Shown here piece by piece: positions 18,032 to 59,150 of a DNA stretch of 64,000 nt. Made by a program: the position numbers and the translations under genes. The notes under the pieces were generated by a model. The model was not told the DNA's origin, did not search any database, and was given only the letters and a program-made list of their open reading frames with translations. The stretch's first letter is position 1. Each line of letters starts with the position of its first letter. Source of the stretch: an uncultured Verrucomicrobiae bacterium (lineage in GTDB: Bacteria > Verrucomicrobiota > Verrucomicrobiia > Chthoniobacterales > UBA10450). Location of the stretch: positions 167,308-231,307 of the forward strand of contig CAVXLV010000006.1 of the NCBI GenBank assembly GCA_963762685.1, read 5' to 3'.

Positions 18032-18045
18032 AGAATTCGTGTCGG

Positions 18046-20949: not shown

Positions 20950-22406
20950 TTAAGGAATGGGCGGGACCGGGATGGGGGATGGGGAGGGCGAGGCTTCCCC
21001 TTCTTCTTTCTCCGCCTGGGCCGCGGCAGCGGGCGGCGGCGCGGCTGTGTTGGGGATGAACCAACCCGTCGTCCGTTTTTCCTCCACGAGGTATTTGTTG
21101 GCGACGCGTTTTACGTCTTCCGCTTTCACCTTCTTGAGCGCGTCGTCTCCGTTGACGTAGAGCGTCCAATCGCCCGCCGCGATGAATTCGTTCAGCTTGC
21201 TGGCGATCGCGAAGGAGCCATCGCGCGCATAGGAAGAAGCGGCCACCATCCGCGCGACCGCAGCTGACACTTCGGCATCGGTGACGCCTTCTTTTTTCAC
21301 GCGTTCCAACTCATCCAGCACGATCTTTTCGACCTGCTCATGAGTGCTGCCGGGAGCGAGACTGGCGTAGAGAATATACAGCGAAGGGTCGTGGAAAAAT
21401 CCCACATCGCCCGTCACGTCGGTGGTGAGATTTTTGTCGGTTAAACGCGCGATACGCGCGGCTGTTTTTTCCATCAGTCAGGATCACATCGAGCACGCGC
21501 AAGGCTGCCTGATCCTTGTTCACTGCTTCCGGAATCTTGTGCGCAAGCGCGAGCACGCCCAGCTCGCCCGCGCGTTTCACAGTTCACGCGACGCGGTCCG
21601 GTTTGCTCCGGCTCTTCCGTGTAAACCACCGGAATCGGTTTCGGCGCCTTCGGGATCGCTCCGTAGTTTTTCTTGATCAATTCCAGCGCCTTCGCCGGCT
21701 CGAAATCGCCGATGACCGAAACGGTGGCGTTATCCGGCCAGTAAAACGTGTCGTAAAATTCGCGCAGCTTTTCGATCGGCACTTTCTCGATGTCGCTCCG
21801 CCATCCGATGGTGGAGTGATGGTAGGGATGGGCCATGAACGCGGTCGCGTAAATTTCCTTCTCCATCGCCTGCGTCGGATCGTTTTCGCCGATCTCAAAC
21901 TCGTTCCGCACCACCGTCATTTCCGGTTTCCGATCCTCTTCGCGCAGCCAGAGATTGCGCATCCGATCGGCCTCGATCGCCATGTAGCCGTCCAGGTTTT
22001 CGCTCCCAATGTTCGCGTAGTAGTTGGTGCGATCCAGCCAGGTGGTGGCGTTGTAGATTCCGCCCACGCGTTCCAGGAGCTGATCGACGCTCGTGCCTTT
22101 TTCGCGATTGAACTTGGGCGTGCCCTTAAACATCAGATGCTCGAGCAAATGCGTCGCGCCGGTCGTGCCGGTGACCTCGTTTCGCGAACCGACCCGGTAG
22201 GTGACCATGAAGGTCAGCGTCGGGCTCGAATGTTCCTCGAGGAGCAAAACCTGCAGGCCGTTTTTATCCAGCGTGTATTCGGAAATCGGGCCCACCGTTT
22301 TCACGAAGGTAAAGCCGGCAACCTTGGCCGGCGTAGGAGGTTCCGCGGCCAGCGCGGCGGAGCTGACGGCAATGAGAGAGGCGAACAGGAGAAGTCGAAC
22401 TTTCAT
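20950..22406 (-). pseudogene. M16 (pitrilysin/insulinase) family zinc peptidase, two +1 frameshifts
   Basis: The signal peptide MKVRLLLFASLIAVSSAALA starts at 22406. The zinc motif GATHLLEHLMFKGT (HxxEH) and NATTWLDRTNY are present. The protein continues through three frames: 21474..22442, then 21338..21580 (VKRAGELGVLALAHKIPEA..), then 20950..21474 (DKNLTTDVTGDVGFFHDPS..). The joins are near 21581-21585 and at the 21443-21445 run. The 20950..22442 span is 3n+2. Confidence 0.8.
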
Positions 22407-22508
22407 GATTGGGAAGGCTAAGGGAGAGCCGATGGCGGACATTGTCCATCGGAAGAAAGCCGCCTGCGCGAAGGAGGCGGGGCCGAGCGGGGCGGCCGTG
22501 AGAAGGGC

Positions 22509-26406: not shown

Positions 26407-29400
26407 ATGTCCCGGCCGAGCTTTGTCTTCCTCGATCCGAGTGGTCGGCGCTGGCCGATCTTCCGCCGCCTCGCGCTGGCCGTGAGTATCATTGCCGGTG
26501 TCGGTTTGGTTCTGTTTGTGGCGGCGGTGTGGATTCGACCAGCGGTGCGGCTGCCCGCCTTCTCGCGCGAGTTACGCAGCCGCCTGAAACCAAACCGGCT
26601 GGCCCTGACGCCGGATCGGAAGGCGCAAGACTGGCAACGCTACAGCGCGCGGGCGCGGGATTTGTTGCAGCATCCCATATCAGCTCCGGCGAAGGTCGGG
26701 CCGCCGTCTCGCAAATTGCCGGTGCGGTTGGCGTTCTTTCCAAATCAAGACGCAAACGCCACTCGATCATTGCGCGAACACGCGGAGCGGCTCACCCATG
26801 TCGCGCCAGATTGGCTGACCGTTTCCGGGGTGGAAAGCGAACTCGCAGTGGAGTCTGATCCGGATTTGAGCGGCTTTCTGTCGCGAGCACGCGCTCTCCG
26901 TAATCCCGATTCTGCGCAACCTGAAAGGCGACGTTTGGCAGCCGGAAGCGGTGGAGGAATTGGCCCGCGCTCCCGTGGACCGGCAACGCGCCTGGGCGGG
27001 AACATTGGCGGAGAAACTGCATTCGTTAGGCGCAGCTGGCGTCTTGCTGGATTTCAATCAGCTCGACCCCAATTTGCAGGCGCAGTTCACCACGCTTTTT
27101 GCGCACATGAGTGAAGTGCTGCGCGCGCACGGGCTGGAATTGTGGGTGGCGGTCTCGATGGACGACGAGTTCGAGAGTTACGATCTCAACGCGCTGGCGC
27201 CGGTGGTGGATCGCTTCGTCGGTCGAATTCTTCGACGAGCACGCGGAAGGCGACGAGCCGGGCCCGATCGCCTCGCAACCCTGGGTGGAAGGCTGGCTGG
27301 AAGTGGCCGCGGATATCGGGACGCCGGAGCAATGGGTCATCGCTCTGGGCGCGCAAGCTTACGATTGGAACACGACGCGCAACCAGACGGAGGCGCTCAG
27401 TTTTCGCGACGCGATGAGCCGCGCCAGTTATGCGGGCGCGGACGTGGCCGGCGAGGTCAACGTGATGGCGCCGGATTACAACGGGCATTTCGGCTACGAA
27501 GAATCGCTCGGCCAGCACGAGGTCTGGTTTCTCGACGCGGTGACCTTGCAAAATCAAATGCGCGCAGCGGCGAAATGGGGCTTCCGCGATTTCGGCGTTT
27601 ACTTCCTCGGCGCGGAGGATCCGGCGATCTGGCAGGTGCTGGCCCGGGCCGAGACGGCGCCTAACGATGGGTTCCTTAAATCGCTGGAGCCTTTACCGGT
27701 AGACGACACCGTGACCCATGTGGGGCGCGGCGAGATCGTGAGCGCGGATTTGAGCCGGGACGCGGGTGCGCGTTCCATCCAGCGGGAGGGCGACGGGCAG
27801 CTGAGCGCGAAATATTCCAATGCGCCCAACTTCCCTGTGCTCTTTCACGATAGCGCGGCGGACGAACACAAAGTGGCGCTCACTTTTGATGACGGTCCCG
27901 ATCCGACCTGGACGCCGCGCGTGCTTGACCTGCTCAAGGAGCGCGGTGTGAAGGCGGCCTTTTTCGTCATTGGCCGCAATGCTGAGCATTACCCGAACCT
28001 GGTCAAACGTATGGTCGCGGAGGGGCACGAAATCGGGAACCACACCTACTCGCATGGCAATCTGGCGGAGATGGCGGAATGGCGTTGGCGCCTGGAGCTG
28101 GATTCGACCGAGCGGTTGATCGAGACCATCACCGGATATTCCACCGCGCTTTTCCGCCCGCCCTATAACGCGGATTCGACGCCGACAGACGTGAGCTGAA
28201 CTGGCGCCGCTCCACTTCGCCGAACATGAACTGGGTTACCTCATCGTGCTCGAAACGATCGATCCGCAGGATTGGGCGCGGCCGGGAGCGGACGCGATCG
28301 TCCAGCGCGTGAAGGAGCAGCGCAGCAAGGGGAACATCATTCTCCTGCACGATGCCGGGGGCGATCGCTCGCAGACCCTGGCTGCGCTGCCGCGGATTCT
28401 CGATTGGCTGGAGGAGCGCGGCGATCGGGTGGTTTCGCTCAGCGAGCTGCTCGGCATCCCGCGCTCCGATCTTATGCCGCGAGTGTCGGCTAACGAGCAG
28501 TTCGGCTGGCGGAGTGTGGCCACGATCGGATTTCGCAGCTGGCATTGGCTGGTGGAATTTTTCTGGTCGTTCATGATTTTCGCCACCGTGCTGGTGGTGC
28601 TGCGGACGCTGCTGATTTGCGGGTTGGCGTTGCGGCAACGACGGGCCGAAAAGCGCCGCGCGCCCGTCGCGTTGGCGCACTGGCCGGGAGTGAGCGTCCT
28701 CATTGCCGCCTACAACGAAGAGCGAGTCATCGCGCGCACGGTGCGCGCAGTTTTGGAGAGCGATTACCGCGGGGAACTCGAAGTGGTGGTAGTGGACGAT
28801 GGGTCCAGCGATCGCACCGCCGAGGAAGTAAGACGGCTCGCCGCGGGCGACGAGCGCCTGCGATTATTGCAGCAGGTCAACGCTGGCAAGCCCGCGGCAC
28901 TGCATCGCGCACTGGACGCCACCCAGCATGAGGTGGTGGTGTTTCTCGATGGCGACACGCTTCTTTGCGCCAGAGACGATTCGGAAACTTGCGGAAGAAT
29001 TGGTCGATCCCGCGGTCACCGCCGTCTCCGGGAATGCGCGCGTCGGCAATCGCGTGAACTTCGTCACGCGCTGCCAATCACTCGAGTATCTCTGCGGGTT
29101 TAACCTCGATCGGCGCGCTTACACGCAATGGAATTGCGTCACGGTGGTGCCGGGCGCGGTGAGCGCCTTTCGCCGCGCGGCGTCTGGCGGAAGCGGGCGG
29201 TTTTTCCCACGACACCCTCGCGGAGGACACGGATCTCACCCTCACGATGCATCGTCTCGGTCATCGCGTGGCCTACGCGCCGGAAGCAATCGCCTGGACG
29301 GAAGCGCCGGAAACGTGGCGCTCGTTAGGCCGGCAGCGGGTGCGCTGGGCTTTCGGCACCATGCAGTGTCTCTGGAAACACCGCGACCTCACCTTCAATC

Positions 29401-29757
29401 CGCGTTTTGGCGCGCTCGGGTTTTTCGCGCTGCCGAGCATCTGGTTCTTTCACATCCTGCTGGTGGCGATCACGCCGCTGGCGGACGCGATCTTACTGTG
29501 GTCGATCCTTGCCGGATACGCGGCGGCGCTTGGGAAAATATTTCGCGCTCTTTCTTTTGCTCGATCTGGCCTTGGCGTTGCTGGCGTGTGCGCTCGAGAA
29601 AGCGCCGCTCCGACGTGCGCTGTTAATTCTTCCCATGCGCTTCGTGTATCGCTGGTTGCTCGCTTGGGTGGTGTGGAAATCCCTGCTCCGGGCGTTGCGC
29701 GGTGCGCTGGTTGGTTGGGGGAAACTGGAGCGCACCGGGACGGTGCGAACGGCATGA
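26407..29757 (+). pseudogene. multidomain exopolysaccharide synthase: TM anchor + GH18-like domain + NodB polysaccharide deacetylase + processive family-2 glycosyltransferase (PgaC/chitin-synthase-like), six +1 frameshifts
   Basis: One protein is reconstructed from ORFs 26281.., 26951.., 27111.., 28246.., 28928.., 29247.. and 29407... Each successive ORF is in the next +1 frame (start coordinate mod 3 runs 1,2,0,1,2,0,1). GH18-like blocks: AAGVLLDFNQLD, VEFFDEHAEGDEPGPIASQPW. NodB blocks: ALTFDDGPDPTWTPRVLDLL, HEIGNHTYSH, LFRPPYN, IILLHD. GT2 blocks: VSVLIAAYNEERVI, VVVVDDGSSDRT, FLDGDT, AEDTDLT, QRVRWAFG (QxxRW), followed by C-terminal TM helices. The stop TGA at 29755-29757 overlaps the next ATG. 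Confidence 0.8.
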
Positions 29758-30914
29758 GGCGTTGGCTCGTCGCGCTGATGTTTTTGCTCGCCGCTTGCGA
29801 GCATGACGCCACGACTGCGGCTTCGCCAACCAAACCGCTCGATCCGCGCGGACGTAAACTGGTTCTGCCCGAGCACGGAATTTACACGGGCGCGTACATG
29901 AACTTCGGCGAGCACGAAGACGATGTGACCCTGGAAAAGATCGAAGCTTTCGAGGAGCTGGTCGGAAAACATCAGGCGATCATTGCCTCGTCCTCTTACT
30001 GGGGAGAGCAGACGTTTCCCGCGGCGAATTTGCAAATCATCGCGCGCCACGGTGCGGTCCCGCTGGTCTTTTGGTCGCCGTGGGATCGTCCCTACGAAGA
30101 GGATCGCGGGCCGGATAAATATTCGCTTTCCTCGATCCTAGCCGGCGCGCACGACGCCTATATCGATCGCTGGGCGGATGGGGCACGGGAATTTGGCGGC
30201 CCCATGGTGCTCTCGTTCGGGAACGAGGCGAACGGATCCTGGTTTCCGTGGAGCGGGAAATATTACGGCGGCGGGACGCAGATTCCCGGAACGGATCCGC
30301 CGCAGTTCCAGGGGCCAGAAACCTTCAAACGCGCCTTTCGTTATCTCGTCGATCGCTTTCGCGCGCGCGGCGCCACCAACGTGCAATGGGTGCTGCACTT
30401 GATGGACTACTCCACGCCGGGGGAGGAATGGAATCTTGCGGCGCAATATTATCCCGGCGCCGATTACGTCGACTGGCTTGGCTTCAGCCTCTACGGCGCG
30501 CAATTCCCGAGCGATGACGGCTACCCGAATTTTGTCTCCTGTTTCGATTGGCCTTACACGGAATTGACCCAGATCGATTCGACCAAACCGATCATGCTTT
30601 GCGAATGGGGCGTGGGCGAGTTTCCCGCGCTCGGCGACAAAGGGGAATGGATTCGCGGAGCGTGGGCAACGATGAGTCAGGGCGAGAAATATCCGCGTTT
30701 CAAGGCGGCGGTTTTTTGGCACGAACGCTGGCAAAACAGCGTGAACAGTGGAGGCGCGGGGAACGAAAATGCCGGGAAGTATAGCGACCTCCGCGCAAAT
30801 TCCTCGGCCGGCGCCTTGAAAGCCTACCGCGCGGGAGTGGCGGCGCCGTATTTCATCGGTACCCCAGCCTTCACCGACCCTGCTGCGCCGGTTCGCGTTT
30901 CTCCCGCGCGCTGA
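29754..30914 (+). CDS. GH26-like glycoside hydrolase lipoprotein
   Basis: The start ATG at 29754 forms an ATGA overlap with the synthase stop. Lipobox LMFLLAAC. GH26-like catalytic blocks SFGNEANGSWFPWSG and IMLCEWGVGEF. Confidence 0.6.
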   Translation: MRRWLVALMFLLAACEHDATTAASPTKPLDPRGRKLVLPEHGIYTGAYMNFGEHEDDVTLEKIEAFEELVGKHQAIIASSSYWGEQTFPAANLQIIARHGAVPLVFWSPWDRPYEEDRGPDKYSLSSILAGAHDAYIDRWADGAREFGGPMVLSFGNEANGSWFPWSGKYYGGGTQIPGTDPPQFQGPETFKRAFRYLVDRFRARGATNVQWVLHLMDYSTPGEEWNLAAQYYPGADYVDWLGFSLYGAQFPSDDGYPNFVSCFDWPYTELTQIDSTKPIMLCEWGVGEFPALGDKGEWIRGAWATMSQGEKYPRFKAAVFWHERWQNSVNSGGAGNENAGKYSDLRANSSAGALKAYRAGVAAPYFIGTPAFTDPAAPVRVSPAR

Positions 30915-37187: not shown

Positions 37188-37367
37188 TTAAACGTCCTCG
37201 ACTTCCTTCTTTTGCGCGTCGAGCCCGGGGCTGATCCCGCCAGACCGGCCGTCGAAAACTTTCACGTGGGGACTGCCGCCACTGACATCACCCTCTGGGG
37301 TCATATCTTCCAGTGGCTCTGCTTTTTCGATCTCTTTTTTCTGAGCGTCTGTTTCGTTTTCCATCAT
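37188..37367 (-). CDS. hypothetical small acidic protein (59 aa, below the ORF-track cutoff)
   Basis: The reverse strand reads MMENETDAQKKEIEKAEPLEDMTPEGDVSGGSPHVKVFDGRSGGISPGLDAQKKEVEDV, ending at TAA (37188-37190). It lies 112 nt downstream of the LolA-like gene on the same strand and is followed by the hairpins at 37111-37169. No family is recognised. Confidence 0.3.
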   Translation of the reverse strand: MMENETDAQKKEIEKAEPLEDMTPEGDVSGGSPHVKVFDGRSGGISPGLDAQKKEVEDV

Positions 37368-37479
37368 GGACCTTTCGTTAGGATTTATTGTCCGGCTCCG
37401 GCCGGGGTGGACCGCTGATGGTGATGGAGGCGGGAGCCAGTGTCCAGCTTGGAAGTTAGACTACAAAGGCGCGCCGTGA

Positions 37480-38154
37480 CTACTTCGGGCCACCCAGCGG
37501 GGTGGTGATTTTCGTGCCGGCCGGTGGAGTGAACTGGAACAGCGCAGGATCAATCGAGGCCCGAGATTCGTTGGAGTAAATGGTCACTATTTTGTCACCA
37601 TTCGGCTGCGACATTTCGGTGCGATCGACCTGGAGGGAGCCGTTAAAATGAATCATGAAACGCTGCAGCATCCGTTTCATCGAGGGCGTGCGCGGTGTCA
37701 GTTCGAGAACATGGCCATTGGCCTCACTCGCGCCGGTAATGTGATAATTTTCTTCTACGCCTTGCAGATTGAGGCTGGCGGTGATGGCGGCAATCCCAGC
37801 CTCGAGCGGAGAGCGCTTGCCTAACGAATAGCGTTCGGCGGAATCAAACTTCGGGTAATAGAGCCAAAGCGTGGTCCCGTCGCTCACGGTCAGGCTGGGG
37901 GTGTTACCTCTGACTTCGCGGCGGAATTTATTCGGCGCCTGAAACCAAACTTTGCCAGCGCTCACGACTGGTTTGTTCATCATCTTGATCGATTTCTCTT
38001 CCTGAAAATCGGCCTGCACTTGCGGGGCGGCGGCGCGTTTCTCGCGAATGCGGGCGAGGAGGCTTTTCAGTTCGCCAGGCGCGAGCGGCGCGGCTGGGGC
38101 GAGAATCGGATTGAGAGCAAGGAGGAAGAGGGAGGTGAAGAGTAACTTAGACAT
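37480..38154 (-). CDS. LolA-like outer-membrane lipoprotein carrier family protein
   Basis: Realistic start ATG at 38154 (MSKLLFTSLFLLALNPILAPA signal). LolA-family pattern ADFQEEKSIKMM...SAGKVWFQAPNKFRREV...TVSDGTTLWLYYPKF. The start overlaps the MMPL stop by 8 nt. Confidence 0.7.
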   Translation of the reverse strand: MSKLLFTSLFLLALNPILAPAAPLAPGELKSLLARIREKRAAAPQVQADFQEEKSIKMMNKPVVSAGKVWFQAPNKFRREVRGNTPSLTVSDGTTLWLYYPKFDSAERYSLGKRSPLEAGIAAITASLNLQGVEENYHITGASEANGHVLELTPRTPSMKRMLQRFMIHFNGSLQVDRTEMSQPNGDKIVTIYSNESRASIDPALFQFTPPAGTKITTPLGGPK

Positions 38155-40678
38155 GTTTGGGATCTTGGACGTGGGTCGAAGAAGATTCTTCGCGCCAGAG
38201 TTTGGGTTCCGCCGCCGCGGTGGCGGGCAAAGCGAAAAATATGGTCGAAACAAGGCTCCAGAAAATGCCGACCGCGCAGGCGATGCCGAGGCCAGCCAAG
38301 GTAGGATTATTAGCCAAGCCCAAGGCACCGAAACCAGCGACTGCGGTCAAGCCGGCGAGGATGACAGGCTTGATCACGCCTGCGACATCGTGCTCGAGCT
38401 CCTCGGCCTTTTGCCAAACCAGGAGGACGTAAATGCCGTAATCCACCCCGATGGCGAGGACGAGACGGAAGGCGAGCACGTTTAGAATATTGAGCGGGAG
38501 ATGGAAGAGCTTCATGGTCGCGATCATGGCGCCGACGGCGAATACGAGGGTGGCCACATGGATGAGCCAAAGTCGCCAATCGCGATACAAAAACGCGAGC
38601 AATCCACCTTCGAAAACCGCCATCATCGCGCTGATGAGAATGAGCTGGCGGTGCGACCACGGAATCAAATCTGTCAGCGTAAAGCTCCAGCCCGAGATGG
38701 TCATGGGAACGCCGGCGACCGGCAGGTCCTGGGTCAGCATTTGTTTCTGCGCTTGCGTGGTGATGGGCGCATGCGTGGTCACGAAGCCCGTGGTCAACAA
38801 AGGATCGTGGGCAAAGTACCGATCAACGAGAAACCACCAGCTCGAGCCTTTGGGTAAAAGAGCACGCCAGTCGGGCAGGGTGGCTTCCGCGGGCGCGACG
38901 CGGGCGAGGTTATCGAGCAGTGCGATGGCCGGCGCGAACGTCTCGGCGTTGAAACCTTCCTGCACCACCGCTGCCTCCAGAGCCTGGCGCGCAGCCGAAA
39001 AATCAACCGTGCGTAAACGCGCGCGATTGGCCTCCAGTCTCGCTGGAGAAAGAGTGAGGGCGGCTGGGGTCGAGAAGCCTTTGATTTTTCCAGCGGCCTG
39101 CAGTTCCGCCCAATGTGCGGAAATTTTCTGCCAGACATCGTGCAATTGCTGCGCGTTTCCCGCACGAACGATTCCGATCGCCGGCTCCCAGCGCGCCGGC
39201 ATTTTTTCCATGATGGTATGCAGCGCGTAGCCAGCTGCGCTCGACTTCGGCTCCATCGATTGCGTGCTCGCATCGAAGATTAATTTCGGCCACGGCGAGA
39301 TGGCGATCGCCATTAATAGGAGCAGCACCGGCAACGAAATTGCCAGCATGGAAAGCGGACGCCGGACGGTCCAGAGGACATAGCGTTTCACGAGCGCGAA
39401 AATCCAATCGTGTCGTCGCACGTGGCTTTCCTGGGGAAGGAAGAGAAAGAAAACCGACATCATGAAAATGCCGGCGAGGAAGATACCGATGGCGATTAGA
39501 ACGCCGAGTTGGGTGAAACCCGTCGAGTTGCTCAGGAGTAAGGCGAGGAAGCCCACCGCAGTGGTGAGCGCTCCGAAGAAGACGGCCTGGCCAAGATTCT
39601 TGATCGCCAAACTGATCCCGGTGGCGTGGTCACAGCCATCATCGCGCGCCTGTTGATAGCGGCCGAAAATGAGGATGGCAAAATCAACTCCCAGCCCGAT
39701 GAGGATGGCGCAAAAACCGACCGTGACCATATTGAGCTCGCCGAAAATAAGCAGCCCGGCGGCGAGCGAAACCAGGCAGCAAAGCCCAAGCGAAAAACCC
39801 ATGCCGAGGAGCGGCAACCAGCGCTTAAAGCCCACATAAAAAACGCCGCCGACGAGGATGACCGAGCCGAAAATCGTGACGACGATATCGTGCCGCATGC
39901 TGAGCGAGATCTCCGCGACGTACGCAGAGCGACCGGTCACAAGAATCTCCAAGGGCCCGCCGTCCCAGCCCGTACCGGCGTTGGCGCGAAAGGCGTTTAC
40001 TTCCTTCATCAAGCGCTGGCACTCGAACGCGCCGATGTCCTTTTGATTCGTGACGGTAACGAAGACGCGCATCGTGCGATCGGGCGAGGTGAGCGGTTGG
40101 TCGTCCTCCATGGAGGCGTTGCTGGCGAAAGGCTTGAGGGCGGGCGCGATCACACCCAGCGGATCGAGGGTGAGTTCAAATTGCGGGCGCGGCGAGCCGG
40201 CCTCGATTTCCTGATGCAGACGCTGCAGGCGTTCCTGGATTTTTGCCGGCTGCAGAGAGGCGAGCGTTTCGCTGAAGGCGGCTTCGTCGAGGTTGAGCAA
40301 AAGCGGGACGGCGATTGTTTGTAGATCATGCACGCCCTCCGGCGTCTCCAGCGGCGAACCGGCGAGGACGCGTGCGCACCAAGGCTGCGCGCGGAGCGCT
40401 TCCGCGAATTGCGGCGCGAATTCCTCCAGGCGATCGGCATCTTCCGGTTTGCTCACAAGCGCGAAAGTGAGCTCACGCACCTGCGCGAAATCGCGGTTAT
40501 AAACCTTCAGACCTTCGACGGATTCGAAGCCGCGCGGGAGAAGATTCAGCACCTCGGTGTCGAGTTTCATCCGCGTCACGAGCACGGCTAACGAAAGGCC
40601 TGCCAAGGCCAAAACGATGATCCAGACGAGGCCGCGTCGTCGGGTGACGAGATGACTTATCGTAGAATGCAACGGCAT
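38147..40678 (-). CDS. MMPL/RND-superfamily membrane transporter (lipid/polyketide exporter type)
   Basis: 843 aa and intact. It has two 6-TM bundles, each followed by a large periplasmic loop, and repeated sterol-sensing-like blocks GLGVDFAILIFGRY and AIGVDYGIYVLLVW. Confidence 0.8.
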   Translation of the reverse strand: MPLHSTISHLVTRRRGLVWIIVLALAGLSLAVLVTRMKLDTEVLNLLPRGFESVEGLKVYNRDFAQVRELTFALVSKPEDADRLEEFAPQFAEALRAQPWCARVLAGSPLETPEGVHDLQTIAVPLLLNLDEAAFSETLASLQPAKIQERLQRLHQEIEAGSPRPQFELTLDPLGVIAPALKPFASNASMEDDQPLTSPDRTMRVFVTVTNQKDIGAFECQRLMKEVNAFRANAGTGWDGGPLEILVTGRSAYVAEISLSMRHDIVVTIFGSVILVGGVFYVGFKRWLPLLGMGFSLGLCCLVSLAAGLLIFGELNMVTVGFCAILIGLGVDFAILIFGRYQQARDDGCDHATGISLAIKNLGQAVFFGALTTAVGFLALLLSNSTGFTQLGVLIAIGIFLAGIFMMSVFFLFLPQESHVRRHDWIFALVKRYVLWTVRRPLSMLAISLPVLLLLMAIAISPWPKLIFDASTQSMEPKSSAAGYALHTIMEKMPARWEPAIGIVRAGNAQQLHDVWQKISAHWAELQAAGKIKGFSTPAALTLSPARLEANRARLRTVDFSAARQALEAAVVQEGFNAETFAPAIALLDNLARVAPAEATLPDWRALLPKGSSWWFLVDRYFAHDPLLTTGFVTTHAPITTQAQKQMLTQDLPVAGVPMTISGWSFTLTDLIPWSHRQLILISAMMAVFEGGLLAFLYRDWRLWLIHVATLVFAVGAMIATMKLFHLPLNILNVLAFRLVLAIGVDYGIYVLLVWQKAEELEHDVAGVIKPVILAGLTAVAGFGALGLANNPTLAGLGIACAVGIFWSLVSTIFFALPATAAAEPKLWREESSSTHVQDPKHV

Positions 40679-40726
40679 GGCAGAGACGAGGCGGAGCCGC
40701 GACGTTCGCGTCGCAAGCTGCGCCGG

Positions 40727-41131
40727 TCAAAAGCGGAGATTAAAGCTGGCGTCGCCTGCTTTAGTCTGGATGGACTTGCGGCCGGCGACGATTTGCTCGC
40801 GCAGAACGAACCAGCCGCGCAAGTGTTCCGGCGCTTCCGCCACCGGGCCAGCCCAACTCCCGCGCGCCATCGGTCCTGTGGCGCTCCCAAATCCCGTGTC
40901 CTGGCGCAAGACCAGAAGGTTTACGCCCGGGCCTTTGCTAAAGGTAAATTCCATCGCGCCGTCCTTCGAGTAGCGCACTAGAATTTCGCCGATGAGCGAA
41001 ACCGTCGGGCTCTGATAAGAAAGCTGGCCGCTCTTCGTGGTCCACGCAGGTGAGGGCGTGGCAAATTGATGATCGGAAGTGGTCTGACAACTCGCCAGCG
41101 CGAGGAAAATTAAGCATAGCCAGCGTTTCAT
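40727..41131 (-). CDS. lipoprotein (possibly DUF3261/LolB-like)
   Basis: Realistic start at 41131: MKRWLCLIFLALASCQ, a lipobox with Cys. The mature protein is about 120 aa and beta-rich. ATGA overlap with the upstream FAD enzyme stop. The family assignment comes from genomic context only. Confidence 0.45.
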   Translation of the reverse strand: MKRWLCLIFLALASCQTTSDHQFATPSPAWTTKSGQLSYQSPTVSLIGEILVRYSKDGAMEFTFSKGPGVNLLVLRQDTGFGSATGPMARGSWAGPVAEAPEHLRGWFVLREQIVAGRKSIQTKAGDASFNLRF

Positions 41132-42437
41132 GAGAGAGCCTCCATGGGTTCCGAAAGGGGCAAAGATGAAGACTCCTGAGGGAGCAAAGTCCGCCGCGGA
41201 CAAACGGGGATATATTTTTGCAGCCAAACGATGGAATAAAAAACCCACATGCGCCAACGGATGGAGAAGGTGGTGCCGACATTGCCGCCCAGGATTGCGT
41301 TCACGGCGGGAGGTAGCTGCAGGAAATCCTGCGGATGCAGGAAGACTTCGATGAACTCCTTGCTATACCAGGCATCCACGAACCGCAGATAGACCTTCAT
41401 CGCGCGCTGCACGGTCCGCTCATAGCGCGCGAAGAGGCGGCGTTTTTGGCGGGGTCGGTCGAGCACAACGTGCAAGGCATCGGCCGCGCGCTCGCCGGCC
41501 ATGATGGCGAGAAAAACACCGCTACTGAAGACCGGGTCGATGAAGCCCGCAGCGTCTCCGGCGAGCAACCAGCGGTCGCCGGCCAGCTTCTCATTTCGAT
41601 ACGAAAAATCGGCCGCTACCGTCACCGGCGTCGCGCGGGTCGGAGGCAAACATGCGGTTGGCGATCACCGGCTGCTCGGCGAGCGAGCTTTCGAGAAATT
41701 CTTCCGGACTCTGCTTCGCTGCTTTGAAAACAGCCGCGTCGAGCACGACGCCGATGCTCATGCGTTCTGCGCTGAGCGGGATCATCCAAAACCAGCGGTC
41801 GAGCGCGCGCACCAGCCGGGTCAGCGTTCCATCAATGCCCGGCTCGCGCACGACGCCGTCATAGTGCGCGAAGATCGAAACCTTTTGCAGGTGCGCGTAG
41901 TTTTTCTTGAGCTTGAAATGCGAACCCACCACGGAGTTCCGGCCACTGGCATCGACCACATAACGCGCAGCCAGGTTCCGAGGCGCGGAGCCCTTTCCCT
42001 GAATGCGAAGCTGCACTTTATCCGTCCGCGAATTCGACCCGCTCGACTTTGGTTTCTTGCTGCACTTCGGCGCCACTTTCCGCCGCGTGATCGAGCAGGA
42101 TGTGATCGAACTCCGCGCGCGTGACCTGATAGGAGCGATCTGTTTGCGATCCGAACCCATTTTTGAAATAAAACTTCACGCCTTCTTCGCTGCAGGCGCC
42201 CACCATTTCGCCGCCAAATTTCTCCATGAAACCGGCGCGCTGAAACTTTTCCTGCACACCCAGCCGCTGAAACGCTTTCATGCTGAAGGGCAGAAGCGAT
42301 TCGCCAATGTGGAAGCGGGGGAATTTCTCGCGTTCCAAAACAATCACGCGCCGCCCGGCACGGGCCAGCAGCGTGGCCGCGGTGCTGCCCGCTGGGCCTC
42401 CGCCGATGATCGCTACGTCGTAAAGTTCCTCTGCCAT
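41128..42437 (-). pseudogene. FAD-dependent oxidoreductase, flavin-dependent halogenase / geranylgeranyl-reductase-like, two +1 frameshifts
   Basis: Three frames carry one protein. 42018..42437: YDVAIIGGGPAGSTAATLLA, VLEREKFPRFHIGESLLP. 41591..42160: RYVVDASGRNS, and DRWFWMIPLS, which matches the WxWxIP motif. 41128..41649: WLLAGDAAGFIDPVFSSGV. The joins are at about 42020-42024 and at the 41648-41650 run. The span is 1310 nt, which is 3n+2. Confidence 0.75.
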
Positions 42438-42556
42438 CGGGCAGCAGTGTATCGAAAATCACCGGCAAGCAAAGCAGGGGAGTCCACGAGGCGCCGATGG
42501 GCTGCGGTCCCACTTTCCGCTTCTTTTCCGCCCAGATCTCCGCATAATCAGCGCCC

Positions 42557-43217: not shown

Positions 43218-44324
43218 GTGAAACTGATCGACCGCTTCATTAGCCGACAACTCCTCGTGAGTCTCGGCTTTGCGGTCGCGGTCCTGAGCTTGGTCCTGGT
43301 GGTCGGGAACATTTTCCGGAAGCTCCTGCCGCTGCTCGTGAATCAGGACCTGCCGGCGGAATATCTTTTCGCCTTCATCGCCTACATCCTGCCGTTCTCA
43401 CTGATCTTCACGATTCCGTGGGGTTTGCTCACGGCGGTGCTGCTGGTTTTCGGAAGGCTCTCGGCGGATAACGAGTTAATCGCGTTCCGCTGCAATGGCG
43501 TGAGCATGGCGCGCATCTGCGCGTCGCTCGCGGTGATCGCGGTCATTTGCACGGGCGTTTCGCTCTGGTTGAACCTGAGTGTGGCCCCCGCGACGCAGCA
43601 GGCGCTCCGCACCATGATTCTCGATATGGCGTCGCGCGATCCCATGGCGCTCTTCGGGAGCGATCAAGTGATCGACCAATTTCCAGGGCGCAAAATTTAC
43701 GTCGGCCGGAAGGAAGGCAACAAGCTGGAGAACATCATCGTTTTCGAATTGAGCGAGAACATGATCCCGATGCGCGTCACGCATGCGCGCAGCGGAACGC
43801 TGGAAGCCGATCTGCCAAACAAGCGCATCCTCATGCACCTTTACGGGGCCCGTTATCAGCAACGCGATGAAAAAGCGCCCTACGATCTGCGGCGCATCCG
43901 CGACGGCATTAATATGGCCGAAGGCACATTGCCGATCAGCCTCGAGGAATTATACGAACGCGAGAAACGCCGGCCGAGCCGTTCCGCCATGTCGCTGGAG
44001 CAGTTGATGGAACAACTCAAAACCGGCACGCGAGGCGAACAGAGCGCGAGCCGCACGGAGCTGAACAAGCGGCTCTCTTTCCCGTTCGCGTGTCTGGCGT
44101 TCGCGCTTGTGGCGGTCCCGTTGGGCGTGACCACGCATCGTCGCGAGACCTCGATGGGGTTCCTCATCAGCCTGGTGGTGGCGTTTGCCTACTTCCTCTT
44201 CATCATCATCGCCGACACGTTGCGCTCGAATCCGAGCGTCCATCCGGAGCTTTTGGTTTGGCTGCCGAATGTGGTCTTTCTGGCGCTGGGCGGCTGGATG
44301 TTCCGGCGCCTGGCTCTGCGCTGA
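43218..44324 (+). CDS. LptF/LptG (YjgP/YjgQ) family LPS export permease
   Basis: 368 aa with a GTG start. N-terminus MKLIDRFISRQLLVSLGFAVAVLSLVLVVGNIF. Topology is 3 TM segments, a periplasmic beta-jellyroll region, then 3 TM segments. Confidence 0.8.
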   Translation: MKLIDRFISRQLLVSLGFAVAVLSLVLVVGNIFRKLLPLLVNQDLPAEYLFAFIAYILPFSLIFTIPWGLLTAVLLVFGRLSADNELIAFRCNGVSMARICASLAVIAVICTGVSLWLNLSVAPATQQALRTMILDMASRDPMALFGSDQVIDQFPGRKIYVGRKEGNKLENIIVFELSENMIPMRVTHARSGTLEADLPNKRILMHLYGARYQQRDEKAPYDLRRIRDGINMAEGTLPISLEELYEREKRRPSRSAMSLEQLMEQLKTGTRGEQSASRTELNKRLSFPFACLAFALVAVPLGVTTHRRETSMGFLISLVVAFAYFLFIIIADTLRSNPSVHPELLVWLPNVVFLALGGWMFRRLALR

Positions 44325-44636
44325 TCGCTCGACAGCCAGCAGCGGAAGCCAACGCGGCCGTAAACAACGCTTATGGCCCTGTCGCATTAGCGGGACGGCA
44401 GAATCCCGAGGATGGGAACGTTTGTTAGCACGGTAGTCGAATCGCGTTTGCGTAAGTATCTCTCCGGGAGTTTGTAATGCCGCAGATGCAGCGCGTGGCA
44501 CGAACGCTGCAACAGGTTGACTTTAGATCTCCATTTAGACCGGAAAACGTCGAATCCCGAGAACCAACATGCACTCACGAAACGCCGTCCGATTCATCCC
44601 GGCGAACCGGATGGTCGAGAATCGCAGAGCTTTCTC

Positions 44637-47063: not shown

Positions 47064-47066
47064 ATT

Positions 47067-47159: not shown

Positions 47160-47185
47160 ACCAAGCCACCAGCCCCAAAAATTCT

Positions 47186-49648: not shown

Positions 49649-49765
49649 AATGAAAGCTTCCAGCAGCGAAATTCGACTTCCAGGGCAGTTCCAAACTTTA
49701 AGCTTCCGGCTTGGAGGCGCGTTTCCTTTTGTGTGTGGAGCTTGGGCATTCTCTGGAGCTTTCCG

Positions 49766-52225
49766 ATGATAACCGAAATCCGCTACGCCCTGCGCCAACT
49801 GCTTAAGCATCCCGGCTTCACCCTCGTCGCCGTCCTCGCGCTCGCGCTTGGGATCGGAGCCAACACCGCCATCTTCAGCGTGGTCAACGCGGTCCTTTTG
49901 CGCCCGCTGCCCTATCCGGAGCCGGATCGGCTGGTGATGATTCGCGAAACCACGGCGACGTTTCCGAGTGGCTCGGTCAGCTATCCGAACTTCCTCGATT
50001 GGCGGGAAGGTCAACGTTCTTTCACCGACATCACGCTGACGCGCCGGGAGAGTTTTAATTTCTCGTTGCTGGCGAGCGAGGCCTCGCCCGAACGCGTGGG
50101 CGCCGGCCGCGTGACGTGGAACTTCCTCGCGATTCTCGGGGTGCAGCCGCTGCTCGGGCGCGACCTGACGGAAGCGGATGATGTGCCGGGCGCAGCGCCG
50201 GTGGCGGTGATTAGTGAGCACTTGTGGAAATCGAAGTTCGGCGCGTCACCGAAAGTGCTCGGTCAACGCATCCTGCTCGATGGCGTCCCAACCGAAATCG
50301 TCGGTGTGGCTCCAGAGGCACTGGCTTTTCCCCGCCTCGCAGAAGTGTGGGTGCCGATGGCTGATTTGCGGAAAGAGCAGGGCATCACGGCCCGCGGCAA
50401 TCATCCCGGATTCTCCGCGCTGGGACGGTTGCAGCCGGGGATATCGCTGCAGCAGGCGACGGCGGATTTGAATACGATCGCGGCAGAACTGGAGCGCCTT
50501 TACCCGGATTCGAACGCCATGCGGCGCGTGCGGATGGATCTGCTGCTCGAAGCGGCGGTGGGCGATTACCGGCACAGCTTGCATTTGCTCCTCGCCGCGG
50601 TCGCATGCGTGTTGCTGATCGCCTGCGCGAACGTGGCCAATCTGCAATTGGCGCGTGCGCTGGCCCGCAGCAAAGAACTGGCGGTGCGTGCTGCTTTGGG
50701 CGCGAGCCGCTGGCAGTTGATGCGGCAGATGTTAACCGAAAGCGTTCTCCTCGCTTTCGCGGGCGCGCTCGCGGGCGTGCTGCTCGCGATCTGGAGCCTG
50801 GATGCAATCCTCGCGCTCAGTCCCGCGCGGGTGGCGCGTTTCCAGGAAACGCGCATCGACCTTTTGGCGCTTCTTTTCACTGGCGTCGTGGCGCTGGGCG
50901 CGGGGATCTTGGTGGGAATCTGGCCCGCCTGGCGCGTTTCGAATACTGCGCAATTGGCCTTGGTGCTGCACGAAGCCGGCTCGCGCGGCGGGAGCGGCGG
51001 TTCCCGGAAACAGCGCGCCCGCAGTGCGCTCGTAATCACGCAGGTCGCGCTCGCCGTGATCTTGCTGGCGGGCGCGGGTCTGACCTTGAAAAGCTTTTGG
51101 CGGGCGCAAAATGCTCCGCTCCATTTTGATCCGACACATCTGTTGACGGTCGGAATTGCGCTGCCCGAGACGCGTTACAAGGAAGACGAAAAGCAGGTCG
51201 CGTTTTTTGCACAACTGGTCGAGCGCGTGCGCGTCTTGCCGGGGGTGGAAGCGGCGGCAATTGGTTCCAATATTCCCTTCGACGACAGCGAATGGGACAG
51301 CAGCTTTCACATTACCGGCACGCCGGAGCCGCCGAAAGGCCAGGAGCCGTCGGCGGAGGTCAACATCGTCTCAGCCCGACTACTTCCGCGCGCTCGGCCT
51401 GCCGATTCTGCGCGGCCGCACTTTCGGACCGGAAGACGTGATGGAGAAAGGCCGCTCGCGTTCCGTCATCATCGATGAAACGCTCGCGCGGAAATATTTC
51501 CCGAACGAGGACCCGATCGGGCGTCAGATCGACGACAATCAAACGTTCGAGAAAGAGCCGCCGCCGCTCACGATCGTGGGCGTCGTTCCGCGGACGCGGA
51601 ACGAAGCAGTGGGAGAGCAAAACGTGGAGATGCTGCAAGTTTCACCATCTGTATTTCGCCGCGTCGCAATACGCCACGACCGGCAGCACGCTGGTCGTCC
51701 GAGTGAAAAACGGAGTCGACCCGCTCTCGCTTGTCCCCGCCGTCCGGCGCGAGGTGCAGGCTCTCGATTCGGCGCAGCCGTTAGGCCCGGTGGCGACGAT
51801 GGAAGAAAACATCGGCAGCAGCCTGGCCACGCGCCGCCTCACGATGGTCTTGCTCGGCTCGTTTGCTGGCTTGGCGTTGACTCCTCGCCAGCCTCGGCTT
51901 GTACGGCGTGATGGCGTTGAGCGTGACCCAAAGAACGCGCGAGCTCGGGATTCGGATGGCGCTGGGTGCGGCGCGCGCGGATGTCTTCCGGTTGGTTTTG
52001 GGGCAGGGGATTTTGCTGGTTGGAATCGGGCTGGCCGTGGGTTTACTCGGCGCCCTCGCGACTGGGCGGGCGCTCGCGAGCGTGCTCTACGGAGTGGGCT
52101 CGATCGATGTGGTGGCCTTGATCGTAGCCTTGGTTGCGCTGGCCAGCGTGGCCATGCTGGCGTGCTTCGTGCCCGCGCGGCGGGCGACGTTGGTGGATCC
52201 GATGGTCGCGTTGCGCGACGAATAA
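49766..52225 (+). pseudogene. ADOP-family duplicated FtsX/MacB-like ABC permease, paralog 3, three +1 frameshifts
   Basis: Start at 49766 ([51 protein letters not shown]). It continues via the 51156 frame ([28 protein letters not shown]), the 51475 frame (FHHLYFAASQ..STLVVRVKNG..LATRRLTMVLLGSFAGLAL) and the 51899 frame ([33 protein letters not shown]). The joins are near 51371-51377, 51637-51642 and 51880. The start coordinate mod 3 runs 2,0,1,2. Confidence 0.8.
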
Positions 52226-52229
52226 GCGA

Positions 52230-52817
52230 TCAGAATTCGCTCAAACTGCCCGCGAGGCCCAGCCGCTCCGCGTCGTCCTGGAGCGCGCTGATTACGCCGA
52301 CGATCAATTCTTCCAGCGGGAGATCCAGTTCGTCGGCGCCGCGCAGGATGTCATCGCGATTGACCGCGCGCGCGAAGGCTTTGTCCTTCATCTTCTTTTT
52401 CACTGAGCCGACATCGACTTCGCGCATGCTTTTCGAGGGCCGCACGCGCGCCACCGCCATGACGAAGCCGCTCAGTTCATCGACTGCGTAAAGCGTGCGC
52501 TCGAGCGGAGTCTCGCGCGTGACGCCGGAGTAATCGGCATGCGAGAGAATGGCGCGGCAGACTTCTTCGTTCCAGCCGTTCTCGCGCAACCATGCCACGC
52601 CGACGAACGGGTGACCTTCCTGCGGATTTTGCGACTGGTTAGGGAAACGCTCGTAATCCATGTCGTGCAACAAGCCGACCGCTTCCCACAGATCAGCGTC
52701 GGCCGCCTGCAACTGCGCGAAGTGCCGCATCGAATCGGAGACCGCATAGCAATGTTTCCGCAGACTCTCGGATTCCACCCAATCGTGCAAAATAGTCAGC
52801 GCGCGTTCTGCCAGCAT
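52230..52817 (-). CDS. HD-domain metal-dependent phosphohydrolase
   Basis: Realistic start at 52817 (MLAERALTILHDWVESESLRKHCYAVS). HD motif GLLHDMDYE, later SHADYSG. About 195 aa. Confidence 0.7.
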   Translation of the reverse strand: MLAERALTILHDWVESESLRKHCYAVSDSMRHFAQLQAADADLWEAVGLLHDMDYERFPNQSQNPQEGHPFVGVAWLRENGWNEEVCRAILSHADYSGVTRETPLERTLYAVDELSGFVMAVARVRPSKSMREVDVGSVKKKMKDKAFARAVNRDDILRGADELDLPLEELIVGVISALQDDAERLGLAGSLSEF

Positions 52818-56776: not shown

Positions 56777-59150
56777 ATGAAAGTCTCTAGAATGCGCAGC
56801 TTTATTTCACGCTACACCCACTGGTTGCATACGCAGTGGCCCGCCGGCACGGTCGAAAAATTACCCGCGTCGGGCGAGAACGGCCTAACGAATGTGGAGG
56901 GCGTGCGCATCGTGGGCGATCTCACGGGCATTCCGCTGCTGAAGTTTTCTTCCCACACCGGGGCCGAGGCGGTGCGGGCTATTTTGCGCGAAGCGGAGTT
57001 TCGTAAAGGAGAGGGCGAGACGCTGGATCTCGCGATCATCGGCGCGGGGGTCGCGGGCATCTCGGCCGCGATCGAGGCGCGGAAAGCAGGGCTGAACTTT
57101 ATCGTGCTGGAGGCCACGGAAATTTTCTCCACGGTCGTCAACTTTCCGAAAGCAAAACCGATCTACACCTACCCGACGGAGATGAAACTGGAGGGCGGGC
57201 TGCATTTTCACGCTGAGGTGAAGGAGGCGCTTGCTGGAGGAGATGCGGGAGCAGGCGGAAGAGGCGGAAATCGAAGTGACTCCGGGACGCGTGGAGCGGA
57301 TCGAACGCAGCGGCAACGAATTAATCCTGCACCTGGCAGAGGGCGAGCCGGCGCGGGCGCGGCGCGTGATCGTGGCGATCGGGCGGAGCGGAAATTTCCG
57401 CAAGCTCGGCGTGCCAGGTGAGGAGCTCGACAAGGTTTCCAATCGTCTCTTTGACCCGAAGGAGTTCGCGGGGAAAAAGGCGCTGGTCGTGGGTGGCGGA
57501 GACTCCGCGCTGGAAACAGCGATCGCGCTCACGAAGTCGGGCGCAGACGTGACGCTTAGTTATCGGGGCGAGGAATTATCGCGCGCGAAGCCGGACAACA
57601 TCGCCAAGGTGCAGATGCTGGCGGTGAACGCGGAGGCGGATGTGCAAGTGGAACGGCCGAAGTCCGAACGCGTGAATAGCGCGATGACTTCCGGCATGCG
57701 CGGCGCGAAAGGCGGCGTTCTGAAGCTGGCCCTCGGCACGAACGTGACGCGAATCGAGCCTGAGCAAGTCTTCCTCAAAAATGGGACCGAGGAAGCGCTG
57801 CCTAACGACGTCGTTTTCACCATGCTCGGCCGTGAGGCCCCGCTGGATTTTTTCCGCCGGAGCGGATTGCATGTGCGCGGCGATTGGCGGCCGTGGACGT
57901 GGATCAGTTGTATCGCGTTCGTTCTTTTCTGCGTGGTGCTCTACCACTGGAAGAGCAATCATCCTCTGGAGTTCCCGGTGCAGAAGTGGGCCAACCAGCA
58001 GCAGGCCTTTCCCTACAATGTGCCGAAAGCGATCGACGCAGTGGGCGGCAAGATTGCGGAGTGGTCCAGTCGCGAAACGAACCTGCTCTACACCATCAAA
58101 CGCGGCCTCGGGAATCCGGCGTTTTATTACACGCTCGCCTACTGCACGTGCGTCTTCGTTTTCGGCCTCCGCCGAATTCGCCGGCGCCGCACGCCCTACG
58201 TCACGTTGCAGACGATTGTGCTCATCTGCTCGCAATGTATTCCGCTCTTCATTTTGCCGGAGTTGATTCTGCCGTGGATGGGGCGGAACGGCCTGTTCGA
58301 GCCCGGACAGCCGCTGCATTGGCTGGCTAATCAATTATTCGAAAGCTACGACGGCTCGTTAGGCCACGAGCGCGCCTACTGGCGGGCTTACGGTTTCATC
58401 CTCGCTTTCCCGCTGAACGTTTACAACGTTTTCACCGATCACCCGCTGTGGCTCTGGCTCGGGATTAGTTTCGTCCAAACCTTCGTCATTATTCCGCTCA
58501 TCATCTTTCGCTGGGGCAAAGGCGCTTACTGCGGCTGGATCTGCTCCTGCGGCGCGCTCGCGGAAACGATGGGCGATACCCAGCGCGAGAAAATGCCGCA
58601 CGGGCCATTCTGGAATCGGCTCAATATGGTCGGGCAAGCCGCGCTCGTTTTCGCATTCGCGATTCTCGGATTGCGCATCGCCGGCTGGGCGCTGGGCGAG
58701 GATTCGTGGGCCACGCTTTGGTATCACAAGCTCTTCGAAGGCATCCCGTTTCTGAATTACGCCTGGAGCGTCGATATCTTCATGGGCGGCATCCTCGGCG
58801 TGGGACTTTACTTTTGGTTTAGCGGTCGCGTTTGGTGCCGCTTCGCCTGTCCGCTGGCCGCTCTCATGCACGTCTACACGCGCTTTTCGCGTTACCGCAT
58901 CTTCCCAGAGAAATCGAAATGCATCTCGTGCAACGTTTGCACCTCCGTCTGTCACCAAGGCATCGACGTCATGAGCTTTGCCAACAAAGGACTTCCGATG
59001 GAGGACCCGGAGTGCGTGCGTTGCTCCGCCTGCGTGCAACAATGCCCGACCGGCGTGCTCGCGTTCGGTCGCTACGATGGCCAACAGCAGATCGTGCTGG
59101 ATAAGATTCCCGCTTCGCCCGTGCGGATGCGGGAAGGGAGGCAGGGTTAA
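56777..59150 (+). pseudogene. membrane-bound NAD(P)/FAD-binding oxidoreductase fused to a polytopic 4Fe-4S ferredoxin domain (NapH/MauN-like), one +1 frameshift
   Basis: N-terminal piece: DLAIIGAGVAGISAAIEARKAG (FAD dinucleotide fold). Second fold: KALVVGGGDSALETAIAL. Then TM helices with Cys clusters GWICSCGALAE, CRFACPLAALMH, CISCNVCTSVCHQG and CVRCSACVQQCPTG. The join is near 57228-57231. The span is 2374 nt, which is 3n+1. Confidence 0.7.

Follow-up and report, generated by a model that had tools for sequence, protein, structure and literature searches.

A conserved Chthoniobacterales operon pairs a flavin-dependent halogenase with a putative lipid route to the outer membrane

Introduction

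Dedicated outer-membrane lipid routes of the LolA/LolB type have so far been proposed, for aryl polyenes and for flexirubin, and not demonstrated. In Escherichia coli, the LolA-like ApeL, the RND transporter ApeM and the LolB-like ApeN (DUF3261) make up the proposed export route to the outer membrane (PMC8253772), and the clusters for xanthomonadin, arcuflavin and flexirubin contain an exporter, LolA and acyltransferases, often together with a halogenase (PMC3949708, PMC3691225, PMC3992019). Such clusters can be split across several loci in Azoarcus (PMC3949708), and lolA2 and lolB2 are always found in flexirubin loci (PMC11885536). Here, an operon with a comparable set of parts is described from an uncultured bacterium of the Chthoniobacterales (Verrucomicrobiota; assembly GCA_963762685.1, contig CAVXLV010000006.1). 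All positions are numbered within the stretch of 64,000 nucleotides (nt) that was analyzed, referred to as the window, in which the operon piece spans 37188..42437 on the minus strand and encodes a flavin-dependent halogenase, a small lipoprotein, an MMPL/RND transporter and a LolA-family periplasmic carrier.

The Chthoniobacterales are represented mostly by soil metagenome-assembled genomes and include Candidatus Udaeobacter, which is among the most abundant soil bacterial groups. Weak antiSMASH calls for 'arylpolyene' and 'ladderane' have been published for a Ca. Udaeobacter metagenome-assembled genome (PMC7343977); a search of the literature on aryl polyene in Chthoniobacterales, on the pigment of C. 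flavus and on PDB 8ZOP found nothing usable. The operon resembles the halogenating and exporting half of an aryl-polyene pigment cluster, has no genes for pigment synthesis nearby, and probably moves a possibly halogenated lipid to the cell surface. The fuller reading is of an operon complete in itself, whose products both tailor a hydrophobic envelope molecule and deliver it to the outer membrane; we regard this reading as about evenly poised.

Results

Composition of the operon

The first-pass annotation of this piece had described four tightly coupled reverse-strand genes for a halogenase-like flavin adenine dinucleotide (FAD) enzyme, a 'DUF3261-type' lipoprotein, an intact 843-aa MMPL/RND transporter and a LolA-like periplasmic carrier. 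All of this was verified with the exception of the DUF3261 assignment, which found no sequence or profile support. The halogenase and lipoprotein genes share a 4-nt ATGA overlap, a gap of 48 nt separates the lipoprotein gene from the MMPL gene, and the MMPL and LolA genes overlap by 8 nt (Table 1). Consensus scans of the operon for promoters and terminators performed no better than on shuffled controls, and no Rfam elements were found near it.

Table 1. Positions of the operon genes and their surroundings, of split genes elsewhere in the window, and of acyltransferase genes in variant loci (numbered within the locus named).
Feature	Position	Strand	Remarks
Flavin-dependent halogenase gene	42437..41128	-	about 435 aa once repaired; three frames: 42437..42018, ~42019..41645, ~41644..41128
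Lipoprotein gene	41131..40727	-	134 aa; lipobox LALAS-C15
MMPL/RND (HAE3-like) inner-membrane transporter gene	40678..38147	-	843 aa; intact
LolA-family periplasmic carrier gene	38154..37480	-	224 aa; cleavable signal peptide, no lipobox, no Cys
Small acidic open reading frame (ORF)	37367..37188	-	59 aa; no Pfam or NCBIfam match
Divergent intergenic region between halogenase gene and DUF2059 gene	42438..42556		presumed operon promoter region, from gene positions
LptF/LptG-family lipopolysaccharide (LPS)-export permease gene	43218..44324	+	LptF_LptG match 1e-70
Split ABC-F ATPase gene	16143..18127	-	consecutive Pfam parts
Split M16 peptidase gene	21474..22442	-	consecutive Pfam parts
Split family 2 glycosyltransferase (GT2) gene	~28246..30914	+	consecutive Pfam parts
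Split MacB-like permease gene	49733..52491	+	consecutive Pfam parts
Split Pyr_redox_3/4Fe-4S gene	56777..59150	+	consecutive Pfam parts
Lip_A_acyltrans (LpxL-family) gene, L087	13081-13995		between MMPL (or LolB-like) and LolA genes
Lip_A_acyltrans (LpxL-family) gene, L091	13093-14031		between MMPL (or LolB-like) and LolA genes
Lip_A_acyltrans (LpxL-family) gene, L085	10477-11412		between MMPL (or LolB-like) and LolA genes
Lip_A_acyltrans (LpxL-family) gene, L093	10497-11417		between MMPL (or LolB-like) and LolA genes

The FAD enzyme falls into Trp_halogenase in both Pfam and NCBIfam, with CmlS-type models scoring highest. Once its reading frame is repaired (see below), the protein aligns across residues 3-360 with solved flavin-dependent halogenases at E values of 3e-61 to 1e-41, the matches being 8zop (3e-61), ChlB4, Mpy16, PltA, CndH, a Cytophaga hutchinsonii flavoprotein (3nix), CmlS and Bmp2. 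The FAD-binding GxGxxG motif reads GGGPAG at residue 12, and WxWxIP, the motif that separates halogenases from monooxygenases, reads WFWMIP at residue 215; LLAGDAAGFIDPVFSSG stands at about residue 290, and the Fx.Px.Sx.G motif is present as FIDPVFSSG. The catalytic Lys, which the first-pass annotation had left in doubt, is found as K73 in GFMEKFGGE, aligned with the Lys of 8zop, ChlB4 and Mpy16 (gf..k(y/f)g); elsewhere in the family it is K79 of PrnA and K71-76 in CmlS, PltA and CndH. The protein is thereby predicted to be a genuine halogenase of the PltA/CndH/CmlS type, enzymes that act mostly on carrier-tethered pyrrole or phenol substrates. The GxGxxG, Lys, WxWxIP and Fx.Px.Sx.G features are the same as those of the carrier-protein-dependent 'variant B' halogenases (PltA, Mpy16, CndH, CmlS, ChlB4 and Bmp2), a group matched at E values of 3e-61 to 2e-44 over residues 3-360. 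In contrast to its solved members, the window enzyme has about 75 additional C-terminal residues, a region that includes an amphipathic Trp-rich segment and is shared only with enzymes from aryl-polyene clusters.

The lipoprotein starts with MKRWLCLIFLALAS-C, and its lipobox Cys15 is invariant in 22 homologues. Neither Pfam nor NCBIfam gave a match, the Pfam result remaining empty at E values up to 10 for 22 members of the family, and a profile search of 1.84 billion representative proteins recovered 248 clusters only. The AlphaFold model of the protein (pLDDT 88.6) was compared by Foldseek, and its best PDB matches were LolB proteins from E. coli, Vibrio, Xanthomonas and Porphyromonas (TMq 0.51-0.57, probability 1.0, E ~1e-3), followed by LolA. 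The LolB-like fold, which had been raised as a possibility, is thus supported by the model and the structural search together; the protein is about 60 residues shorter than LolB and has no sequence similarity to it. As modeled, it is a short outer-membrane lipoprotein with a LolB/LolA-type half-barrel, and it represents a new and narrow family. Membership of DUF3261 (PF11659) was ruled out by Pfam, blastp and a profile comparison with ApeN.

The transporter matches Pfam MMPL at 9e-37, retains the proton-relay motifs GVDF (residue 330) and GVDYGIY (residue 744), and has its hydrophobic segments arranged 1+5/1+5; by these features it is a predicted RND-type, proton-driven inner-membrane transporter whose relay Asp/Tyr motifs are intact. 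Its nearest solved relatives are the HpnN structures (E 1.5e-18), followed by MmpL4. Assignment to HpnN was rejected, with scores far under the model cut-offs (TIGR03480, 162.7 bits against 751.85; NF052374, 83.4 bits against 1100). HpnN (PDB 5khn, 6wu0; TIGR03480) shares the HAE3-type architecture of the window transporter and also moves lipid towards the outer membrane; to our knowledge it works without LolA- or LolB-like partners. The periplasmic carrier, with its signal peptide and a Pfam LolA match of 5e-16, is a predicted secreted LolA-family protein. It scores 76.3 bits against TIGR00547 (cut-off 112) and 60 bits (1.5e-16) against the NCBIfam model LolA2_flexi (cut-off 125), and it matches canonical LolA structures at E values of 4e-8 to 1e-6.

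Conservation across Chthoniobacterales

One genome per species was scanned for the lipoprotein with a narrower alignment as the query, so that close relatives only were covered. Relatives were present in 208 species, and the best 80 are all Chthoniobacterales, Spartobacteria or Udaeobacter, bar one contig labelled Dormiibacterota. Names carried by these 80 loci and by homologues of the MMPL protein likewise put the window in the Chthoniobacterales. In L048 (DATIOX010000220.1), labelled Candidatus Dormiibacterota, the module proteins are 47-63% identical to those of the window, and to judge by these sequences the contig is probably a misbinned piece of a Chthoniobacterales genome.

Gene neighborhoods were counted over 81 non-redundant loci, each denominator being the number of loci with enough flanking sequence. 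The halogenase gene immediately precedes the lipoprotein gene in 58 of 72 loci (displaced in three and absent in 11), the MMPL gene lies directly downstream in 63 of 65, and a LolA gene follows in 53 of 61, those without it being mainly Udaeobacter-type loci. Linkage of the four genes, a matter that the first-pass annotation had referred to orthologue neighborhoods, is conserved, with all four present in 40 of 55 Chthoniobacterales loci. Upstream on the opposite strand, a single LptF/G gene occurs in 37 of the 42 loci with at least 9 kb of upstream sequence, an arrangement that could be explained by synteny alone or by a connection with LPS biogenesis. De novo ORF clustering of the flanks, a procedure made noisy by spurious high-GC antisense ORFs, showed no further broad conservation outside the module and LptF/G.

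Several smaller observations concern the arrangement of the module. The LptF/G gene comes to within 200 nt of the lipoprotein gene where the halogenase gene is absent (e.g., L055, L057 and L067). At three loci (L068, 6637-9747; L079; L083), a segment of about 3.4 kb carrying an opposite-strand ORF of 1036 codons lies between the halogenase and lipoprotein genes. The small acidic ORF downstream of the carrier gene is kept, with in-frame indels, in L005, L006 and L007 only, and on this pattern is probably a real gene of the closest relatives that stands outside the conserved module; its N-terminal TDAQKKE..EPLEDMTPE.DV.GG is conserved and the stretch past Gly-Gly is variable, which loosely recalls a double-glycine leader peptide.

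The conservation data also bear on whether the LolA- and LolB-like pair might serve housekeeping lipoprotein sorting, in bacteria that otherwise seem to be without LolB, with the MMPL and halogenase genes as neighbors by synteny only. The carrier does score best against the canonical model TIGR00547 and does match canonical LolA structures, and the best structural matches of the lipoprotein are true LolB proteins. Conversely, the LolA score stays under the 112-bit cut-off, eight of 61 loci have no LolA gene and the combination of genes varies between loci, LolCDE genes are not found next to the module, and the lipoprotein family is restricted to one order. The overlaps of the LolA gene with the MMPL gene and of the lipoprotein gene with the halogenase gene also speak against neighbors by synteny only, and we consider this explanation very improbable.

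Divergent variant modules

More divergent loci reveal the module in several combinations. Two of them (L087 and L091) have a five-gene operon in which genes for halogenase, LolB-like protein, MMPL transporter, a Lip_A_acyltrans protein (PF03279) and LolA are joined, and L085 is a variant without the MMPL gene. Reduced sets comprise LolB-like protein, acyltransferase and LolA only (L093-L095), halogenase and LolB-like protein only (L092), and a LolB-like and MMPL pair behind a KdsB-like gene (L096); solitary lipoprotein copies without the lipobox Cys occur in L089 and L090. The proteins that L085 and L087 have in common with the window are orthologues of the window's, at 31-59% identity. The variant-module acyltransferase matches the C-terminal acyltransferase domain of E. 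coli ApeJ (E 8e-9), and it was found neither in the window nor in the four-gene loci. No polyketide or fatty-acid-type core was found in any of the divergent contexts.

Two further neighbors were observed among the variants. In L085 (6990-8466) and L086 (1644-3035), the halogenase gene is immediately preceded by an 80-codon ORF and a gene for 3-deoxy-D-arabino-heptulosonate 7-phosphate (DAHP) synthase, the enzyme that opens the shikimate pathway; these two contigs are nearly identical and count as one observation, of the MMPL-less variant. The KdsB-like CMP-Kdo synthetase gene of L096 (8380-9255) lies just upstream of the LolB-like and MMPL pair.

Relation to aryl-polyene-type clusters

Tblastn of the halogenase against plasmids and chromids gave its best match in Azospirillum (36% identity, E 3e-65, 253 bits), with others in Skermanella, Burkholderia/Caballeronia, Variovorax and Ralstonia. 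All four annotated homologues (Azospirillum, Skermanella, Burkholderia and Ralstonia) lie inside typical aryl-polyene clusters, which hold genes for ketosynthase (KS) and chain length factor (CLF), acyl carrier protein (ACP), FabG, dehydratase (DH), LPLAT, GT2, deacetylase, MMPL, a LolA-related protein and an AMP ligase. The halogenases of these xanthomonadin/arcuflavin-type clusters are 34-36% identical to that of the window over about 400 aa, the C-terminal extension included. The carrier is 24% identical to the LolA-related protein of the Azospirillum cluster (E 4e-8), and the window MMPL protein matches the MMPL proteins of the clusters weakly, at 49-70 bits (3e-15 for that of Ralstonia), and ApeM of E. 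coli at 24% identity (E 6e-9). With matches for the halogenase, LolA, MMPL and acyltransferase, four of the five protein types therefore have detectable relatives in aryl-polyene clusters, and the fifth, the lipoprotein, is a fold analogue. We take the module to be a probable evolutionary relative of the accessory half of the xanthomonadin/aryl-polyene clusters.

The resemblance extends to the kinds of parts and differs in their setting. E. coli CFT073 (L084) has the same three kinds of part in ApeL/M/N (MMPL/RND, LolA-family and LolB-like) with the same proposed role of delivery from the inner to the outer membrane, but the gene order is LolA-MMPL-DUF3261 there and LolB-like-MMPL-LolA in the window, and the ape genes are embedded among KS, CLF, ACP, DH and ketoreductase genes whereas the window module stands alone. 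The xanthomonadin/aryl-polyene clusters also hold MMPL and LolA-related genes and acyltransferases; they differ in having a KS/CLF/ACP/ligase core, a PF01553 acyltransferase, GT2 and a polysaccharide deacetylase, none of which is linked to the window module, and in lacking any detectable member of the window lipoprotein family. In Flavobacterium johnsoniae, LolA2 and LolB2 of flexirubin (PMC11885536) are, as the window pair would be, a LolA/LolB-type pair for one outer-membrane lipid pathway as opposed to general lipoprotein sorting, though the flexirubin operon belongs to another phylum and no flexirubin or dialkylresorcinol genes are found near the window module.

A number of results weigh against an aryl-polyene-like tailoring and export operon. 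The lipoprotein matches E. coli ApeN (DUF3261) in the signal peptide only (blastp and hhalign profile comparison), the carrier has no significant similarity to E. coli ApeL, and the transporter is as close to HpnN as to the aryl-polyene transporters, ApeM included. The halogenase gene (missing in 11 of 72 loci) and the LolA gene (missing in eight of 61) are not obligatory, and the recurrent neighbors of the module include genes with a part in LPS (LptF/G, an LpxL-like acyltransferase and KdsB). The window and the related loci were probed by tblastn with a FabF-like KS, with ACPs and with all 18 Ape proteins of E. coli, which revealed no gene for a KS, CLF, ACP, dehydratase, LPLAT, thioesterase or ligase. 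Across about 90 loci in six types of context, the sequence within 10 kb of the module likewise contained no genes for KS, CLF, ACP, dehydratase and aryl-acid ligase.

Pfam scans of most large ORFs of the window detected no KS, ACP or lipid acyltransferase gene either, so that the first-pass annotation was right in finding none within 64 kb, as it was in placing an Sfp-type phosphopantetheinyl transferase gene at 464..1213, which lies among unrelated genes. A KS gene near L087 was considered as an aryl-polyene KS and rejected as a FabF-like housekeeping gene. Taken as a whole, the analogy to aryl-polyene and flexirubin export that had been proposed stands with regard to architecture, to the halogenase homologues in such clusters and to the conserved linkage; it falls with regard to family membership, the lipoprotein not being DUF3261, the carrier having no significant similarity to ApeL and the MMPL protein being at least as close to HpnN as to ApeM. 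The analogy is supported for the workings of the module and not for strict membership of the families.

An alternative cargo would be another envelope lipid in place of an aryl polyene, either hopanoid-like or a lipid-A-related (glyco)lipid, with the halogenase as its tailoring enzyme or only loosely associated. HpnN provides the best solved and NCBIfam matches of the transporter, LPS-related neighbors recur (LptF/G in 37 of 42 loci, an LpxL-family acyltransferase in variants, and KdsB upstream in L096), and polyketide or fatty-acid-type core genes are missing nearby, all of which would agree with such a cargo. Against it, the HpnN scores fall far under the cut-offs, no hopanoid biosynthesis genes (shc and hpn Pfam families) occur in any neighborhood table, and LPS itself travels by the Lpt route and not by LolA. 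Moreover, the halogenase and lipoprotein genes are translationally coupled, and the closest annotated relatives of the enzyme are those of aryl-polyene clusters. Flavin-dependent halogenases require electron-rich substrates, and saturated lipids are without such sites. This alternative is judged unlikely.

A second alternative dispenses with lipid trafficking: the module would serve efflux or self-protection, its object being a small phenolic or pyrrolic metabolite that has been halogenated. Members of the halogenase family (PltA, Mpy16, Bmp2, RadH and relatives) usually yield small bioactive organohalogens, and RND transporters often serve efflux; however, proteins of the LolA and LolB folds bind acyl chains and are not known as efflux partners, genes for a membrane-fusion protein or an outer-membrane channel are missing, as are adjacent biosynthetic genes, and what the MMPL/HAE3 clade is known to export is lipid (HpnN and MmpL structures). 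Efflux is rated as quite improbable, below a different envelope lipid.

Frameshifts in the halogenase gene

Two insertions of 1 nt each, one at about 42022 (GG for G) and the other at about 41644, disrupt the frame of the halogenase gene; they were located by tblastn with intact orthologues and by DNA alignment, with three close relatives that have intact halogenase genes as the reference. The first-pass annotation had reported two frameshifts in the FAD gene; both are real in this sequence, but it is doubtful that they are specific to this gene. At least five more genes in the window are split into overlapping ORFs, with Pfam matches that cover consecutive parts of one family (Table 1). This pattern suggests that indel errors are general in the assembly, at about 1 per 8 kb. 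Because these other genes are split and the close orthologues are intact, the frameshifts are probably assembly errors, a cause that we regard as decidedly the likelier of the two when set against real loss.

Real loss would mean that the gene is a pseudogene, that the halogenating step is gone from this genome and that only the export part works. Two frame-breaking insertions within 1.3 kb while the three downstream genes are intact, and the complete absence of the halogenase gene from 11 of 72 related loci, would be consistent with such a loss. The split state of the ABC-F, M16, GT2, MacB-like and Pyr_redox genes argues against it, as do the similar split matches obtained with long-read contigs of relatives. 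For the separate fragments of the gene, identity to the L001 orthologue lies at 78-85%, and the gene as one piece reaches 89% against L004, its closest relative, values in line with those of neighboring genes, and the comparison with L004 and L006 identified these two single bases as the sole frame-breaking differences over the full gene, with no further decay. Loss is a possible but less probable account.

Other features of the window

Downstream of the LptF/LptG gene on the plus strand, 44517-52491 contains three tandem large permease genes of the MacB_PCD/FtsX type, two of them encoding proteins of 848 and 820 aa and the third being split; no ABC ATPase gene adjoins them, and copies of this type also flank the module in L004, L008 and L011-L016. 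At 27111-30914 on the plus strand, a polysaccharide deacetylase gene, the split GT2 gene and a GH26-domain region form a poly-N-acetylglucosamine (PNAG)-like exopolysaccharide locus.

Discussion

From the families, motifs, fold, operon structure and conservation described above, we infer the order of the steps and the hand-over between the parts. The halogenase would act in the cytoplasm, chlorinating or brominating the cargo at an electron-rich head group that is most likely of an aryl or phenolic kind; the cargo might be carrier-bound or at the membrane during this step. The proton-driven MMPL transporter would then pull the lipid out of the inner membrane, the LolA-like protein would shield it across the periplasm, and the LolB-like lipoprotein would take the lipid and insert it in the outer membrane. 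Such a relay would follow the route proposed for ApeM/ApeL/ApeN and for flexirubin LolA2/LolB2. Synthesis of the cargo may be encoded elsewhere or be of another kind, and in sister lineages the LpxL/ApeJ-type acyltransferase of the same operon would join the cargo to a lipid anchor.

It should be stressed that the parts and the logic of this module are already known and that it is not a new kind of system. What is new is the core-less, stand-alone arrangement conserved over an order of abundant soil bacteria, the undescribed family of LolB-fold lipoproteins whose gene is tightly coupled to that of a halogenase, and the modular variants with an LpxL-type acyltransferase. For the annotation of these genomes, entries called 'MMPL family transporter' and 'hypothetical protein' can be recognized as belonging to one conserved envelope module.

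Apart from any biosynthetic genes, the module represents a minimal and portable version, of four to five genes, of the dedicated lipid routes that aryl polyenes and flexirubin are proposed to use. It is conserved throughout an order of dominant and almost uncultured soil bacteria, and it offers a compact system for the hand-over of lipid from an RND pump to carriers of the LolA and LolB folds. It also points to a possibly halogenated surface lipid in Verrucomicrobiota. A far-reaching extension of this reading is that the Chthoniobacterales make and surface-expose a new class of halogenated envelope lipid by a stand-alone pathway (halogenase, MMPL transporter, LolA-type carrier and new LolB-fold lipoprotein) that is independent of aryl-polyene-type polyketide genes, a proposition that we put forward as speculative and rather doubtful. 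Should it be true, the stand-alone pathway would be a new route of outer-membrane lipid trafficking outside the Proteobacteria and Bacteroidota, and may be a widespread biological source of the organohalogens of soils.

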